Source: a virus | Lineage: Duplodnaviria; Heunggongvirae; Uroviricota; Caudoviricetes | DNA length: 10,911 nt | Virus record (IMG/VR): IMGVR_UViG_2541047120_000012 | Reading direction: 5' to 3' (one strand) | In this document: positions 6,270-10,911 of the stretch, piece by piece | Numbering within the stretch: the stretch's first letter is position 1 | Layout of the letters: each line of letters begins with the position of its first letter | Notes under the pieces: model-generated | Database searches by the model: none | The model's input: only the letters and a program-made list of their open reading frames with translations | What the model was told of the DNA's origin: nothing | Position numbers and translations under genes: made by a program

Positions 6270-9092
6270 ATGACGGCAGAGTACATCAGGGACTGGCAAC
6301 AACCGCGCCACGCAGTGGGGCGTGAAGGAACGGGGATCCCCGCTCCTGAATCCGCGCTTTCCTCCTGGCTGGATGCCTACCGGGTAGAGAACGAGCGCCG
6401 CCAAGAAATGGCTGATGCGGCGTTCTCCGCAACGCCGCTGGGCAACCTGATTAATAAAAGCCTGGACGCACAGGAAAAACAGGACAAAACCATCACACTG
6501 GCAGGAGACGCCAGAAAACAGGCACGCGGTGCGGTGGATGAAGCCATGGCCTCGCTGCGCCTGCTGCCGTCCTATCTGCGCGATCCGCTTATTCGCCACC
6601 TCTCCTTCCTGCGCAAAAAACAGGAAGCCGATCGTCAGAAAGGCAAAAAGAGCTGGCAGGCTGAACGCTACGCGCGCGGAAACCTGCGCAAAATATTCGA
6701 ACGTCTGGAGCGCACCGATCACCGCTGGCTGACACAGGGTTATCGCTCCCTTGCCGGACGCGAACGCCTGGACGATTTGCTTTACCTGCCGCAGCTCAAC
6801 AAACACCAGATACAGACGCTGGCCACCATGACGGCGGCGATGTTCAGCAGCACCTTCGAAAAACTCTGCGATGGCTTTGGCGCGACCGATGGCGAACTGA
6901 CCATGGATGTAACGCTGAAGGCGTATCAGATGCTGGCCCGCATGGCGTTACACCTGCACGCCATGCCTCCACATTATGACGCACTGACAACAGACAAAGA
7001 CCGGAGGAACGAACCGGACACGGAGCTGCTGCCGGGCGCAATCCTTCGCCTGACCTGTGCGGAATGGTGGAAACGCAAACTGTGGCTGTTACGTTGCGAG
7101 TGGAGAGAAGAACAACTCCGCGCCGCCTGTCTGGTTTCCAGAAAAACATCGCCCTATCTGAGCCAGGACGCGTTAAGCGAGTTTCGCGCACAGCGCGAGA
7201 AAACACGCGATTTCCTGAAAAGTTTCATGCTGGAAAACGAAGACGGGTTCACGATTGATCTCGAGACAGTGTATTACGCGGGAGTAAGTAACCCGGTTCA
7301 CCGTAAGGCAGAAATGATGGCCACCATGAAGGGGCTGGAACTTCTGGCCGAAGCCCGTGGCGACAAAGCGGTGTTTCTGACTGTCACCTGCCCGTCAAAA
7401 TACCACGCTACAACAGAGAACGGTCATCCGAATCCCAAATGGAACGGGGCCACCATGCGCGACTCCAGCGATTACCTGGTTAACACGTTTTTTGCGGCGG
7501 TCCGCAAGAAACTGAACCGCGACGGCCTGCGCTGGTATGGCATCCGCACGGTGGAGCCTCACCATGACGGCACCGTGCACTGGCATATGATGGTCTTTGC
7601 TCATCCGGAAGAAATCGACACCATTGTGTCCCACACCCGCGATATTGCCATTCAGGAAGATCGTCACGAGCTGGGCGATGATATTACTCCGCGCTTTAAG
7701 GCGGAGTATGTCGACGGCTCAAAAGGCACGCCAACCAGCTACATCGCCACCTACATCGGAAAAAACCTGGACAGCCGCGCCGTGGATGGCATCGACCCGA
7801 AAACAGGCAAACCACGCGTTGACCACGAAACCGGAAAATCAATGACCGAGAGCGTGGAACGCGCCATTGGCTGGGCGCGCCTTCACCGGGTCCGCCAGTT
7901 CCAGTTCTTTGGCATCCCCTCCCGTCAGGTGTGGCGTGAACTGCGTCGCCTTGCCAGCCAGATGGCACGCAACCCGGAAGGCCCGCAACGGCTGAAGGAT
8001 GACGCAATGGATGCGGTTCTTGCTGCCGCTGATGCCGGATGTTTTACCACCTACATTGAGAAACAGGGAGGCGTACTTGTTCCACGCAAGGACTACCTGA
8101 TTCGCACCGCCTACGACCTCGCAGATGAGCTGAACGATTACGGCGAACAGAGCGTACAGATTTACGGGATCTGGTCACCACTCATCGGGGAATCCTCCCG
8201 TGTGTGCACGCACCCGGATAACTGGAAGCTGGTAAGACGTAAACCGGGAGTAGAAGACAGCGCCCGCGAAAATGGTTTTGACCTTCAGGGCGGCCCTGCC
8301 GCCCCTTGGACTCGTGGCAATAACTGTCCCCGTGTACAGGAAACGGACAACAACGGGACAGAACAGCCGGAAGAACGGCCAGCACCGTGGCCGCAGCTTC
8401 CTGACGGCGTTGACGTGAACGAATGGATGCGCTCACTGAAACGGCACGAACGCCGGGCGCTGATGCGTTCGCTTCGTGACAAACAGGCAAAAAACAGCAG
8501 TGATGAAATGCAGAGCTGGACACAGAGCCGCAAACAGCAGCGGCCTTTGCCTGATAACCACGAATTACTCGCTAAAGAATGGCGGGAGTCTGCTGAATCT
8601 CTCGGCCTGCATATCGGTGAACAACAGATGCAGCACCTGTTACGGGGCGGCAGTCTGTACGTTGACGGCAGCATCATTGCACCGCAGGGATTTGAAATTG
8701 TACGCAAACCGGATACCCGCCCGGACAGCCGAATCACGCAGCTCTGGCAGCGCCTGAGCCGTAATCATGGCGTAAGCAGCACGGAGATCCGCCATAACCC
8801 GGTCGCCAGCTATCTGGCACAGCTGGGGGCATCAGACCCTGAAGCCGCCGCACGCCTGGCATCCACACTTCAGCAGGACCAGAACACCATGAAAACACCC
8901 GTTACCGTGCTTTCTGACATGCTGCGCGCCATCCGCGACGCAGAGCACGCACAGAGAATCAGTGAAACCACTGAACGCGCCAGCCGCAAAGCAGACCTGC
9001 TGCGGGGTGGCCTGACCAGTGGAAACAAAAAACAGACAGAAACGGGACTCACAAATCCCGTAAATGAGCAAAAAACGCGCCGCGATATATGA
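6270..9092 (+). CDS. Phage P2 GpA-like rolling-circle replication initiation endonuclease (HUH superfamily), 940 aa
   Basis: HUH motif VHWHMMVF (His437/His439, nt 7578-7586) and two-tyrosine active site SYIATYIGK (Tyr491/Tyr495/Lys498, nt 7740-7763), matching the phiX174 A / P2 A YxxxYxxK arrangement. Gene order repressor, cox, small genes, A is that of P2/186. Confidence 0.8.
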   Translation: MTAEYIRDWQQPRHAVGREGTGIPAPESALSSWLDAYRVENERRQEMADAAFSATPLGNLINKSLDAQEKQDKTITLAGDARKQARGAVDEAMASLRLLPSYLRDPLIRHLSFLRKKQEADRQKGKKSWQAERYARGNLRKIFERLERTDHRWLTQGYRSLAGRERLDDLLYLPQLNKHQIQTLATMTAAMFSSTFEKLCDGFGATDGELTMDVTLKAYQMLARMALHLHAMPPHYDALTTDKDRRNEPDTELLPGAILRLTCAEWWKRKLWLLRCEWREEQLRAACLVSRKTSPYLSQDALSEFRAQREKTRDFLKSFMLENEDGFTIDLETVYYAGVSNPVHRKAEMMATMKGLELLAEARGDKAVFLTVTCPSKYHATTENGHPNPKWNGATMRDSSDYLVNTFFAAVRKKLNRDGLRWYGIRTVEPHHDGTVHWHMMVFAHPEEIDTIVSHTRDIAIQEDRHELGDDITPRFKAEYVDGSKGTPTSYIATYIGKNLDSRAVDGIDPKTGKPRVDHETGKSMTESVERAIGWARLHRVRQFQFFGIPSRQVWRELRRLASQMARNPEGPQRLKDDAMDAVLAAADAGCFTTYIEKQGGVLVPRKDYLIRTAYDLADELNDYGEQSVQIYGIWSPLIGESSRVCTHPDNWKLVRRKPGVEDSARENGFDLQGGPAAPWTRGNNCPRVQETDNNGTEQPEERPAPWPQLPDGVDVNEWMRSLKRHERRALMRSLRDKQAKNSSDEMQSWTQSRKQQRPLPDNHELLAKEWRESAESLGLHIGEQQMQHLLRGGSLYVDGSIIAPQGFEIVRKPDTRPDSRITQLWQRLSRNHGVSSTEIRHNPVASYLAQLGASDPEAAARLASTLQQDQNTMKTPVTVLSDMLRAIRDAEHAQRISETTERASRKADLLRGGLTSGNKKQTETGLTNPVNEQKTRRDI

Positions 9093-9140
9093 AGCGCGCA
9101 CAAAACAGGCAAAAGCGGGATTTAAAAATCCTGTAACCGA
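9031..9140. repeat. Two 37-bp direct repeats (9031-9067 and 9104-9140), each with an internal palindrome (CGGGA...TCCCG; GGATTT-AA-AAATCC); candidate parC-like centromere/operator
   Basis: Aligned by eye: AACAG(A/G)CA(G/A)AA(A/G)CGGGA-N5-AAATCC(C/T)GTAA. The first repeat is inside the 3' end of the GpA gene, the second in the 76-bp gap before parM. Confidence 0.4.
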
Positions 9141-9168
9141 TTAATTAATCAACATAAGGAAAAGCGAC

Positions 9169-10128
9169 ATGAAAATTTGTATCGACGACGGCTCCACCAA
9201 CATCAAGCTGGCATGGACTGAGAACGGCGAACGCCGCAACGCCATCAGCCCGAACAGCTTCAAGTCGGAATGGTCTGCGCCATTCGGTGGCACGCAGCCC
9301 GCGAACTACATGCTTGATGGCGTGCGCTATGGTTTTGATCCGGTCAGCGATCGCTTTGTCCAGACGACCGACACGCAATACCAGTACAGCGATGTGAATG
9401 TAATTGCCATTCATCACGCGCTGGTCAAATCAGGCATCACACCACAGGAAGTGGATGTGGTTGTCACCCTGCCACTGAGCGAGTATTTCGATACAAACGC
9501 ACAGCCGGACATGGCCAACATCAACCGCAAAAAAGCGAACGTCATGCGCCCGGTGGAGTACCAGAACGGCGAAGCATTCACTATCCGTAACGTACGGGTT
9601 ATGCCTGAATCCATTCCTGCTGGCTTTAAGGCACTGGCTGACATGAGTCCGTTTGAATCCCTGCTGATTGTGGATTTGGGCGGAACCACGCTGGATGTGG
9701 CAAAGGTTCAGGGGCAACTGGCAGGTATCAGCCAGGTGTTTTGCGATCCACACGTAGGCGTTTCTCTGATGGCCGATGCCGTACTGTCGGTGATGGCCAC
9801 TAACGGTATGCGCACCAGTCACCACATCGCCAATACCATTATCGAACATCGCCATGATGAAGCCTGGCTGCGCCAGCACATCCACAATGACGCGCATTAC
9901 GCCAGCCTGATGGCGGTTATTCGTGAAAAGGAAGAAACACTGAAACAACGCGTGATCCGCGCGCTGGCGGTTTTTTCGGGTTACGGGCGGGTGATGGTTG
10001 TCGGTGGCGGGGCGGAGATTGTGGCAACCGCTATCCGCGAAGCCTGCGGAGTTAATGCGACTTTCATCGCGGACGGGGTGCCACAGTTTGCTCTGGTTAA
10101 TGGGTTGTACGCAATGAACAAGGAGTAA
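9169..10128 (+). CDS. parM: Actin-like plasmid segregation ATPase ParM (StbA family), 319 aa
   Basis: N-terminus [35 protein letters not shown] closely parallels plasmid R1 ParM ([21 protein letters not shown]...ISPNSFKREW), as does [15 protein letters not shown]; later glycine-rich motifs (DLGGTT, VVGGGA). Confidence 0.85.
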   Translation: [319 protein letters not shown]

Positions 10129-10132
10129 ACCA

Positions 10133-10447
10133 ATGACGACACCAACCAGACGGATAAGTTTCTATCTGAAGCCCGCCGCCGTCAAGAGTGAACAGGAGGC
10201 GTGCAATTACCTCGATAGCCTGCCAGCCTCCGAACGCAGCCGCGCGCAACGCGCGGCCTTTCTGGCTGGGCTAGCACTCATAAAGCGCAACCCAGCATTT
10301 GCCTACTGGATGGCCGAATGGCCAGAGGACAACCTCCCCTTCAATACCGTTAGCATCAAGGAAACATACCAGGCTAATCAGCCTAGCGGAGTTGAATGCA
10401 ATTTTTATAAAATAAAAAAGAATATTCAGACCTTATTCCCAGAATAA
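10133..10447 (+). CDS. parR: ParR-like (StbB) centromere-binding adaptor, 104 aa
   Basis: RRISFYLKP...YLDSLPASERSRAQRAAFLAGLALIKRNP parallels R1 ParR (RRTIAFKLNP...LDSIPQGERSRLNRAALTAGLALYRQDP) as recalled. Immediately downstream of parM with RBS AAGGAG. Confidence 0.75.
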   Translation: MTTPTRRISFYLKPAAVKSEQEACNYLDSLPASERSRAQRAAFLAGLALIKRNPAFAYWMAEWPEDNLPFNTVSIKETYQANQPSGVECNFYKIKKNIQTLFPE

Positions 10448-10468
10448 TCTGATAATTGTATGTGAACT

Positions 10469-10911
<443 letters not shown>

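Follow-up and report, generated by a model that had tools for sequence, protein, structure and literature searches.

The 940-aa open reading frame (ORF) at positions 6270..9092 of the window (the whole stretch of 10,911 nucleotides analysed here) is a real gene and encodes gpA, the replication initiator of a P88-like (Xuanwuvirus, Peduoviridae) P2-family prophage remnant. Overall, the data probably describe an intact P88-like gene A with an internal origin and a separately assorting, five-part tail, the end of which is written by the neighbouring cargo.

Gene A and its setting

The following features define the gene and its downstream neighbours:
6270..9092, + strand: gene A, ORF with an ATG start, encoding the HUH endonuclease gpA (940 aa), which initiates rolling-circle replication
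6270..6569, + strand: N-terminal module, aa 1-100, variable and exchanged separately from the core
6804..7778, + strand: Phage_GPA catalytic domain, aa 179-503 (PF05840, alignments)
7578-7586, + strand: HUH motif H437-W438-H439 (alignments)
7740-7754, + strand: active-site tyrosines Y491 and Y495 (alignment with P2 A)
9169-10128, + strand: parM (Pfam StbA_N and ParM C-terminal domains)
10133-10447, + strand: parR/stbB (Pfam Plasmid_stab_B)

In phiX174 gpA and other rolling-circle HUH Reps, an HUH motif is combined with two tyrosines and the origin lies within the initiator's own gene; these proteins are much smaller than the window protein, and the similarity is limited to the catalytic motifs. 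Assignment of the ORF to the GpA/HUH family, made in the initial annotation, is borne out by profiles and by alignment of its motifs with P2 A. Pfam PF05840 (Phage_GPA) matches aa 179-503 across the complete profile (positions 1-321 of 321; E 2.4e-131; 438 bits versus a cutoff of 31.4), and the PHROG 91 profile ('nicking at origin of replication'; 852 positions) aligns along its full length to aa 3-940 (E 1.4e-274). On the side of phiX174 gpA and the other HUH Reps, PF23343 gives a sub-threshold match (24.7 bits versus a cutoff of 27.8). The RefSeq name for the 940-aa protein is 'replication endonuclease' (WP_000123463.1). VHWHMMVF begins at aa 436 and YIATYIGK at aa 491, which agrees with the spacing of about 55 residues given originally. 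In alignments of 12 and of 24 sequences, with P2 and 186 among them, H437/W438/H439 and Y491/Y495 do not vary. The two tyrosines (YIATY, Y-x-x-x-Y spacing) pair with Y450/Y454 of P2 A (GYIAKY), named as active-site residues in PMC3986222, which cites Odegrip & Haggard-Ljungquist 2001. A whole-protein sequence search of solved structures gave nothing meaningful (E about 0.7), and AF2 models the full-length protein poorly (mean pLDDT 58), with aa 596-710 predicted to be disordered (pLDDT <50).

The closest relatives are P88/Xuanwuvirus gpA proteins of 940-946 aa (P88_4B11 VUD40214.1, PhiR44_2 XSB42701.1; 89-98% identity), the 940-aa A protein of P88_4B11 being 98% identical to the window protein. 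P88-type phages share the window's gene order (small ORF, A, parM, parR) as well as its origin core and tail. Unlike them, the window copy lies inside a defective, IS-truncated prophage. The N-terminal 100 residues differ in PhiR44_2 and in the most abundant cluster (P0021): aa 1-100 are only 23-28% identical to those of PhiR44_2, P0021 and P0022, versus 94-97% for the core, and the module edge shows as a rise in DNA identity from ~50% to >90% around 6570-6630.

The locus is CP-933T/Sp13 next to yecA in E. coli O157:H7, a P88-like prophage remnant. Its integrase is truncated by IS1203/IS3 copies and its late genes are broken, but gene A itself is intact. Judged from the window ORFs and the RefSeq and P88_4B11 annotation, gene A lies in an early-operon setting, 3' of a repressor/cox-type switch and small early genes and 5' of the gpA-gpQ hotspot; in intact relatives the cargo is followed by portal and terminase. 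P2 gene A is likewise in an early operon followed by a cargo hotspot, which in P2 holds tin/old and in the window parMR. The parM-parR pair (9169..10447) is a type II (ParMRC) partition cassette in this hotspot, where about one in four E. coli P2-like phages has a partition system (PMC9122126).

The protein exceeds P2 gpA (761 aa; P2 CDS L001 1354-3639) by 179 residues, matching the earlier estimate of about 180. It is 'unusually long', as first described, relative to P2 and 186, but not otherwise: gpA proteins of the same length class form clusters of 16,881, 3,025 and 707 member sequences, and matches covering at least 80% of positions 7800-8800 were found in 1,356 of the 5,426 complete E. 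coli genomes searched (about a quarter). The P88-type gpA is an ordinary and very common initiator.

A candidate origin within gene A

Three nested features were placed in the 3' part of the gene:
8288..8330, + strand: candidate origin of replication within gene A (homology to the P2/186 origin)
8288-8304, + strand: origin hairpin GGGCGGC-cct-GCCGCCC (structure kept in relatives)
8305-8326, + strand: origin core CTTGGACTCGTGGCAATAACTG, right after the hairpin (homology to 186/P2)

P2 ori is located within gene A (PMC3986222). The same had been suggested for the window, and a candidate nick-site search indeed found a homologue of the P2/186 core at 8305-8326. The origin region encodes aa ~674-687 (..GPAAPWTRGNNCP), of which N684-N685-C686 are invariant in both the 12- and the 24-sequence alignments. 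In P2 the origin occupies the same relative place in the gene, encodes ..NNC, and consists of a hairpin and CTYGGA..CAATAACTG. The phage 186 record has a rep_origin annotated at the homologous spot; that annotation is 'by similarity with P2', and the nick position predicted here follows it. The predicted nick region of gpA is the origin at 8288-8330, CTTGGACTCG.. included.

Over the 22-base core, P2 differs from 186 at one base and the window at five; compared with P2, the window core also differs at five positions. The motif occurs once in the window and was matched in 0 of 200 shuffles. A hairpin is present in P2, 186 and SopEPhi with differing sequence, i.e. its structure is conserved and its sequence is not. 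The 30-bp block 8301-8330 is identical across five lineages. Fels-2/SopEPhi/Cartapus-type gpA proteins (about 750-805 aa) show 42% identity to the window protein over aa 9-796, and the 30-bp origin core is identical. At the sequence level, a cognate origin was found in the 3' part of gene A, and it can be placed to within about 40 bp. By homology to P2 A, the HUH/double-tyrosine nuclease of gpA would nick one strand at this origin within its own coding sequence, become covalently attached via a tyrosine, and prime rolling-circle replication.

Parts of the tail and the surplus over P2 A

Downstream of the origin, the protein contains the following parts:
8415..8525, + strand: basic helix aa 716-752 (W..SL..ERRAL..LR), in every P2-family A protein compared
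8550..8885, + strand: C-terminal domain aa ~761-872 (profile search, alignment, AF2, dN/dS)
8901..9008, + strand: long final helix, aa 878-913, specific to the A proteins of P88-like phages and Hafnia
8980..9092, + strand: cassette-supplied ORF end, aa ~904-940 and stop (similarity breaks, frames)

The characterised rolling-circle initiator P2 gpA is collinear with the window protein (31% identity over aa 77-744) and lacks its aa 20-76 insert and aa ~816-940. In the alignment, the surplus over P2 A amounts to about +35 aa at the N-terminus, about +20 in the middle/linker and about +120 at the C-terminus. Three things account for the 179 extra residues: an N-terminal module of another kind, short insertions in the linkers, and about 120 residues at the C-terminus; the last make up about two thirds and sit past the P2/Fels-2-type ends (aa ~816-940). 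The post-origin tail measures 83 aa in 186, about 140 in P2 and about 255 in the window. One could see the extra length as the usual variation between lineages, distributed over the whole protein rather than added as a discrete piece, given that about one third of the surplus lies outside the C-terminus, that every P2-family A protein compared has some post-origin tail, and that PHROG 91 matches from end to end. However, the concentration of about 120 of the 179 residues at aa ~816-940, including a distinct conserved subdomain (aa 816-872), makes this explanation quite unlikely.

The tail had initially been described as rich in charged and low-complexity sequence. We found neither: charged residues make up 0.287 of the last 300 aa and 0.286 of the first 640, and mean Shannon entropy is 3.58 versus 3.62. 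Polar residues (Q/N/S/T/G/P) are more frequent in the tail (0.39 versus 0.28).

The basic helix is modelled by AF2 as helices H716-722 and H725-752. The 186 A protein (694 aa), of the same family and with an annotated intragenic origin, also continues with a basic ERRxL helix, but its 83-aa tail has no counterpart of the aa 761-913 domain. Residues 761-815 form an alpha/beta unit of two helices and a three-stranded sheet ('LLRGGSL..DG'). This unit is common to Fels-2-type A and possibly to P2 A as well; the P2 C-terminus matches it weakly (hhalign of tail profiles, E 0.046), and the same comparison with the 186 tail gave no match. Fels-2/SopEPhi/Cartapus-type proteins have the basic helix and the first half of the C-terminal domain in common with the window protein (Cartapus gpA, E 1e-5) and end soon past 'LLRGGS', without aa 816-940 and without a par cassette. 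Residues 816-872 form a helical 'WQRLxxNHGV..IRxNPV..Y' subdomain present only in some long gpA lineages and absent from P2, 186, Cartapus and SopEPhi; for aa 816-913 as a whole, no counterpart was found in P2 and 186 at the sequence level.

A profile of the C-terminal domain had 21 matches among 1.84 billion representatives, all of them gpA C-termini or fragments. A genome-contig scan with the tail profile found only 4 loci, of which two, on contigs labelled Vagococcus and Planococcaceae, are probably contamination, and a word-index homology search with aa 800-940 returned close fragments only. Fold and sequence searches of the tail matched no known partner-binding or regulatory domain, and a comparison with P2 orf91, made with a fusion in mind, revealed no similarity. 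The AF2 model of the tail has a mean pLDDT of 78, but its pTM is low (0.37). The dN/dS of aa ~761-872 is 0.12-0.19, similar to the core. Since it is under purifying selection, aa 761-872 must be a genuine domain of the protein; its predicted role is most likely to assist the initiator by binding DNA or a host factor. The terminal helix (aa 878-913) is under weaker constraint (dN/dS 0.23-0.65).

A frameshift or lost stop during prophage decay, fusing gene A to downstream sequence, might also produce a long tail. The prophage is IS-riddled, with a truncated integrase and broken late genes, and the last codons do read through into another cassette. Yet a 940-946-aa ORF is also found in the complete phage records P88, P88_4B11, PhiR44_2, 520873 and Shae_phiSM, aa 761-870 have a dN/dS of 0.12-0.19, and read-through fits the final ~22-37 codons only. 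Phage P88 was obtained via prophage induction (PMC5285337). The complete records together with purifying selection refute a decay artefact for aa 687-903, and as an account of the long tail we consider it extremely improbable. Our reading remains that of an intact gene with a composite tail. The proposal of a single added C-terminal domain thus stands for the conserved subdomain at aa ~761-872 but not for the surplus as a whole, which is composite and ends in par read-through.

The ORF end, the par cassette and apparent exchange at the origin

One further feature overlaps the end of gene A:
9026-9063 and 9099-9136, + strand: two 38-nt direct repeats, candidate parC / ParR operator before parM (repeat/palindrome search)

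The last ~22-37 codons of gene A come from the downstream cargo, here the parC region of the ParMRC cassette. Similarity to variants with other cargo (L018, L020) ends at ~8978. In L016, an unrelated 155-aa zinc-ribbon ORF shares the terminal ..KKQTKTGFTNPVNEQKTRRDI and stop, and DNA similarity begins at ~9022, from where on the DNA is par cassette. A 1-nt deletion in L007 puts the ORF end in another reading frame (..NKNRQKRDSQIP and stop), and the par-linked end is read in differing frames in L007 and Hafnia. As the initial annotation had noticed, the gene overlaps the first parC-like repeat: the copy at 9026-9063 falls within the last 22 codons. Each repeat holds the palindrome AACGGGAyTyAnAAATCCyGTAA (2 matches, 0 expected), and DNA conservation is higher in the repeats than in the upstream coding sequence (Hafnia, Salmonella). 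The final 23 codons have a dN/dS of 1.35 at a dS of 0.07, with very few sites. The ORF end is constrained as DNA (the parC repeat) and not as protein. A sigma-70 promoter scan of 8900-9250 found no site. The annotated gpA lengths of 910, 916, 925, 940 and 946 aa largely reflect the abutting cargo cassette and not functional domains; single-base frameshifts in an A-run also add to the differences.

Proximity to par raises the alternative that the tail is a discrete domain coupling the initiator to ParMRC (e.g. by binding ParR, ParM or parC), as one unit for a plasmid-like phage life. ParM lies about 80 nt downstream in all 14 phage records with the tail (aa 800-940), and phage D6 has the only other ParM matches in the phage collection. 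Tail and par also occur together in a 186/Fels-2-type backbone (L007) and in Hafnia (L010), and the gene A ORF overlaps the first parC-like repeat. Against this, the tail up to aa ~903 occurs beside unrelated cargo, and in the absence of par genes, in P0012 (910 aa, 162 index blocks) and in P0005, which has 916 aa. In P0145 the domain at aa 761-872 is likewise found without par. In L016, par follows another ORF, and the A tail is of another type. Finally, the par-linked stretch differs in frame between L007 and Hafnia. With tail lacking par and par lacking tail both on record, an obligate functional link is rejected, and we regard coupling as unlikely. Position alone explains the linkage: whatever lies between the origin and cos is passed on as a single arm.

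Shuffling was assessed from DNA identity profiles, nucleotide alignment, a 66-homologue table, a tail alignment and the contexts L007, L008 and L010. The same nuclease core is joined to at least four different tails, directly after ..GNNCP, and the window's tail is joined to two different cores; P0100 and P0101 are natural chimeras of a Fels-2/SopEPhi/Cartapus-type core with the window's tail. Partial matches in E. coli genomes stop at window positions 8330-8332, with isolated 50-nt islands at 8286-8335, and the 30-bp origin core is a conserved island among otherwise diverged A genes. The post-origin part (aa ~687-940) assorts separately from the nuclease core, with junctions that fall exactly at the origin core.

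We tentatively suggest that the origin in gene A might be the fixed left-hand junction of a P2-family 'cargo arm', a possibility to which we give somewhat less than even weight. Crossover there would swap everything from the origin to cos, including the A tail, cos itself and the cargo (ParMRC or defence systems, for example), between phages that differ in nuclease core, either by short-homology recombination or by initiator cleavage-joining that terminates on the origin of a co-resident phage. No description of the origin as a cargo-arm junction was found in the literature searched, and its apparent use as a site of recombination adds a small new point. If true, the C-terminal quarter of the initiator belongs to a mobile hotspot, and the cargo cassette writes its extreme end.

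Overall, the apparent oddity of the long initiator mostly disappears: it is the gpA normally carried by one of the most common types of E. coli P2-family prophage. Were the intact initiator derepressed, it and its origin could cause the locus of this defective prophage to be nicked or over-replicated within the chromosome. The gpA-gpQ hotspot, already known for its defence and other cargo, seems to start within gpA, at the origin, which bears on how its boundary is defined and on views of how cargo moves between P2-like phages.

A widespread gpA-type initiator

Gene A was recognised rightly in the initial annotation as encoding a gpA-type HUH initiator.

6270-9092, + strand: gene A ORF, ATG start, 940 aa

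The protein matches Pfam PF05840 (Phage_GPA) at aa 179-503 (E 2.4e-131), PHROG 91 ('nicking at origin of replication') spans it end to end (aa 3-940) and PHROG 6857 matches aa 252-940. Both noted motifs are present, VHWHMMVF (from aa 436) and YIATYIGK (from aa 491), and neither the HUH histidines nor the two tyrosines vary in alignments with P2, 186, SopEPhi and many database homologues. By BLASTP, aa 77-744 are collinear with P2 A 42-687 (31% identity), and YIATY aligns with P2 A Y450 and Y454, the published active-site residues (PMC3986222).

P2 A has 761 aa (CDS 1354-3639 of the P2 record, L001), so the window ORF is 179 aa longer, as had been estimated (about 180 aa). The description 'unusually long', however, holds against P2 and 186 but not in general. 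The gpA clusters of 16,881, 3,025 and 707 member sequences comprise proteins of 946, 941 and 940 aa, respectively, and window positions 7800-8800 are found at ≥80% coverage in 1,356 of 5,426 complete E. coli genomes. Hence, gene A exceeds its P2 and 186 counterparts in length, yet is not unusual; its product is an already known, very common initiator. The window is 99.7-99.9% identical to E. coli O157:H7 strain chromosomes, where gene A is annotated as WP_000123463.1 'replication endonuclease'. The Xuanwuvirus phages P88 and P88_4B11, and relatives including PhiR44_2, are complete phages with a 940-946-aa gene A (89-98% identity), after which parM and parR follow as in the window. Copies 90-97% identical also occur in two Firmicutes-labelled assemblies (L011, a Vagococcus sp. 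WN89Y contig, and L014, a Planococcaceae MAG contig), and these probably reflect contamination or mis-binning.

The prophage remnant carrying the window adjoins tyrP/yecA and is truncated and interrupted by IS3-family elements. Its other features include:

1-420 and 10467-10911: IS3-family (IS1203/IS629-like) transposase fragments at the two window ends
383-997, - strand: prophage integrase, cut by the left IS to its N-terminal 204 aa
1003-1350, - strand: DUF2511 lipoprotein-like ORF
1380-2030, - strand: 216-aa ORF
2046-2450, - strand: HTH repressor-like gene
5341-5415, + strand: isrK (Rfam gathering-level match, 63 bits)
5451-5538, + strand: C4 antisense RNA (Rfam gathering-level match, 78.5 bits)

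In strain 1613, the late region past the right IS is broken up by more IS copies. The DUF2511 and 216-aa ORFs, flanked by the truncated integrase and the HTH gene, lie in a low-GC stretch (36-42%), and 1003-2450 looks like a second cargo site beside int; PADLOC returned only weak HTH-type matches. The two RNA matches lie just upstream of a 76-aa 'derepression protein' ORF (5595-5825). This region looks like a P1/P7 immI-like c4-ant module in a P2-family early region, and a 205-aa ORF (5284-5901) placed across the RNA genes in some annotations is probably spurious.

Candidate origin within gene A

The P2 origin sits within gene A (PMC3986222), and the same had been proposed here. The GenBank record of phage 186 also places a rep_origin ('located by similarity with P2') within gene A. 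At this site 186 reads GCGCCCTCTCGGAGTTCTGTCAATAACTG, a 22-mer that P2 carries with one mismatch. The window has a homologue of this sequence, preceded by a hairpin:

8288-8304: hairpin GGGCGGC-cct-GCCGCCC, directly upstream of the origin core
8305-8326, + strand: candidate origin core CTTGGACTCGTGGCAATAACTG, 5 mismatches to the 186 22-mer

The window 22-mer is identical in SopEPhi, P88_4B11 and PhiR44_2, and a degenerate pattern that covers the three versions matches the window at a single site and none of 200 shuffles. Every phage compared has a short G+C hairpin right before the core, with a sequence that differs between phages (GCGGC-atc-GCCGC in P2, GGGCGC-ttct-GCGCCC in 186, GGCGC-ta-GCGCC in SopEPhi). 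Such retention of the hairpin despite changed sequence is expected if it serves as a structural element in an HUH origin. The core codes for ..APWTRGNNC.., with N684, N685 and C686 invariant in alignments. The candidate origin lies at aa ~680 of 940, and the tail following it has ~255 aa in the window protein, ~140 in P2 and ~83 in 186.

Composition of the C-terminal surplus

Alignment with P2 and 186 showed that the surplus over P2 A is partly spread, with ~35 aa in the N-terminal region, ~20 across middle and linker together and ~120 past the P2 end; about two thirds is therefore C-terminal. This C-terminal surplus is not one domain. The tail reads as five parts:

aa 716-752: (i) basic helix ERRAL..LR, common to all aligned A proteins, 186 A among them
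aa 761-815: (ii) two helices with a three-stranded sheet, at a pLDDT of about 77-88
aa 816-872: (iii) helical subdomain WQRLxxNHGV..IRxNPV..Y..L
aa 878-913: (iv) long helix, only in P88-like and Hafnia proteins
final ~22-37 codons: (v) cassette-derived end

Part (ii) carries a LLRGGSL..DG motif common to Fels-2/Cartapus-type A proteins (E 1e-5) and bears only a weak likeness to the P2 C-terminus (hhalign E 0.046); no counterpart was found in 186 A. For part (iii), a profile search across 1.84 billion representative proteins gave only 21 matches, all gpA C-termini or fragments. Comparison of the window with Salmonella, Hafnia and two E. coli variants gave dN/dS of 0.09-0.14 for the core, 0.12-0.19 for aa 761-870 and 0.23-0.65 for aa 871-917. 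Parts (ii) and (iii) thus form a genuine protein domain under constraint, which is looser in part (iv). Of the discrete C-terminal extension originally proposed, a conserved accessory domain stands, but the rest is a lineage-specific helix and read-through into the par cassette. Nor are the last 300 aa charged and low-complexity as described: their charged fraction is 0.287 versus 0.286 in the first 640, with equal sequence entropy; they are more polar and have fewer hydrophobic residues. In the full-length AlphaFold model, pLDDT is below 50 at aa 596-710.

As initially noted, the gene overlaps the first of two parC-like repeats:

9026-9063: 38-nt direct repeat, copy 1, within the last 22 codons of gene A
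9099-9136: 38-nt direct repeat, copy 2, between the gene A stop codon and parM
9169-10447: ParM/ParR (StbA/StbB) type II partition cassette, in an integrating P2-like prophage

Both repeat copies include the palindrome AACGGGAyTyAnAAATCCyGTAA, which fits a candidate ParR operator or parC. A consensus scan of 8900-9250 found no sigma-70 promoter. In a degraded relative (L016), an unrelated 155-aa zinc-ribbon ORF precedes parM with the same ending, ..KKQTKTGFTNPVNEQKTRRDI*, and DNA similarity to the window starts about 9022. This ORF (L016 4810-5277; CxxC...CxxC motifs) separates a different A tail from parM and shares only the last ~22 codons with gene A; 151-aa homologues follow an 879-aa A variant in two loci (L021, L022) without par genes. 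A single-base deletion in an A-run shifts the frame in L007, where the protein ends ..NKNRQKRDSQIP*, and the Hafnia protein end differs too, with the palindromes kept as DNA. Collinearity with the window ends at about nt 8978 (aa ~903) in two variants (P0012, 910 aa; P0005, 916 aa), which then enter unrelated cargo (three reverse-strand genes in one; an AAA ATPase plus an S8 peptidase in the other). For aa 918-940 versus Salmonella, dN/dS is 1.35, with dS only 0.07 and few sites. Taken together, varying ends, conservation of the DNA and this ratio indicate that the ORF end is supplied by the downstream cassette and is under constraint as DNA rather than as protein.

The interval from gpA to gpQ is a known cargo and defence hotspot, where roughly one in four E. 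coli P2-like phages has a partition system (PMC9122126), and PMC7969092 names P88 as a possible phage-plasmid. ParM lies about 80 nt downstream in 14/14 phage records with the window tail. The association is nevertheless positional, not obligatory, since P0012, P0005 and P0145 (an 841-aa gpA among the 21 profile matches, from a P2-like prophage) lack par genes and L016 has par behind an unrelated ORF.

Mosaicism and the junction at the origin

DNA and protein comparisons show that the gpA tail assorts INDEPENDENTLY; its junction falls at the candidate origin. L007, whose early region and nuclease core are of the 186/Fels-2 type, is ~50% identical to the window until ~8300 and 95-100% identical from 8310 through parM, whereas L008 is ~97% identical until ~8309 and unrelated beyond. 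Both switches fall inside block GCCCCTTGGACTCGTGGCAATAACTGTCCC (8301-8330), identical in five lineages. Among 66 full-length homologues the protein comprises three modules (aa 1-100, 120-680 and 690-end); one core (..GGPAAPWTRGNNCP) is joined to four or more different tails, and the window tail occurs behind two distinct cores. Partial matches to 7800-8800 among E. coli genomes end at window 8330-8332, and diverged A genes match only a 50-nt island, 8286-8335.

The first ~100 aa form a second mosaic module (6270-6630; junction about nt 6570-6630), with 23-28% identity to PhiR44_2 and the most abundant E. coli cluster and 94-97% over the remainder. A small upstream ORF (5898-6263) may co-vary with this module, by analogy with 186 orf84 and A translation.

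No description of the origin as the start of the variable arm turned up in the searched hotspot papers. If two cos-delimited genomes crossed over once at the origin island, tail, cargo and cos would be swapped together, whether by ordinary short-homology recombination or through the initiator's own cleavage-joining activity. Overall, these data suggest that the variable arm of P2-like phages begins within gpA, at the origin, and we regard the origin as junction as a modest lead.
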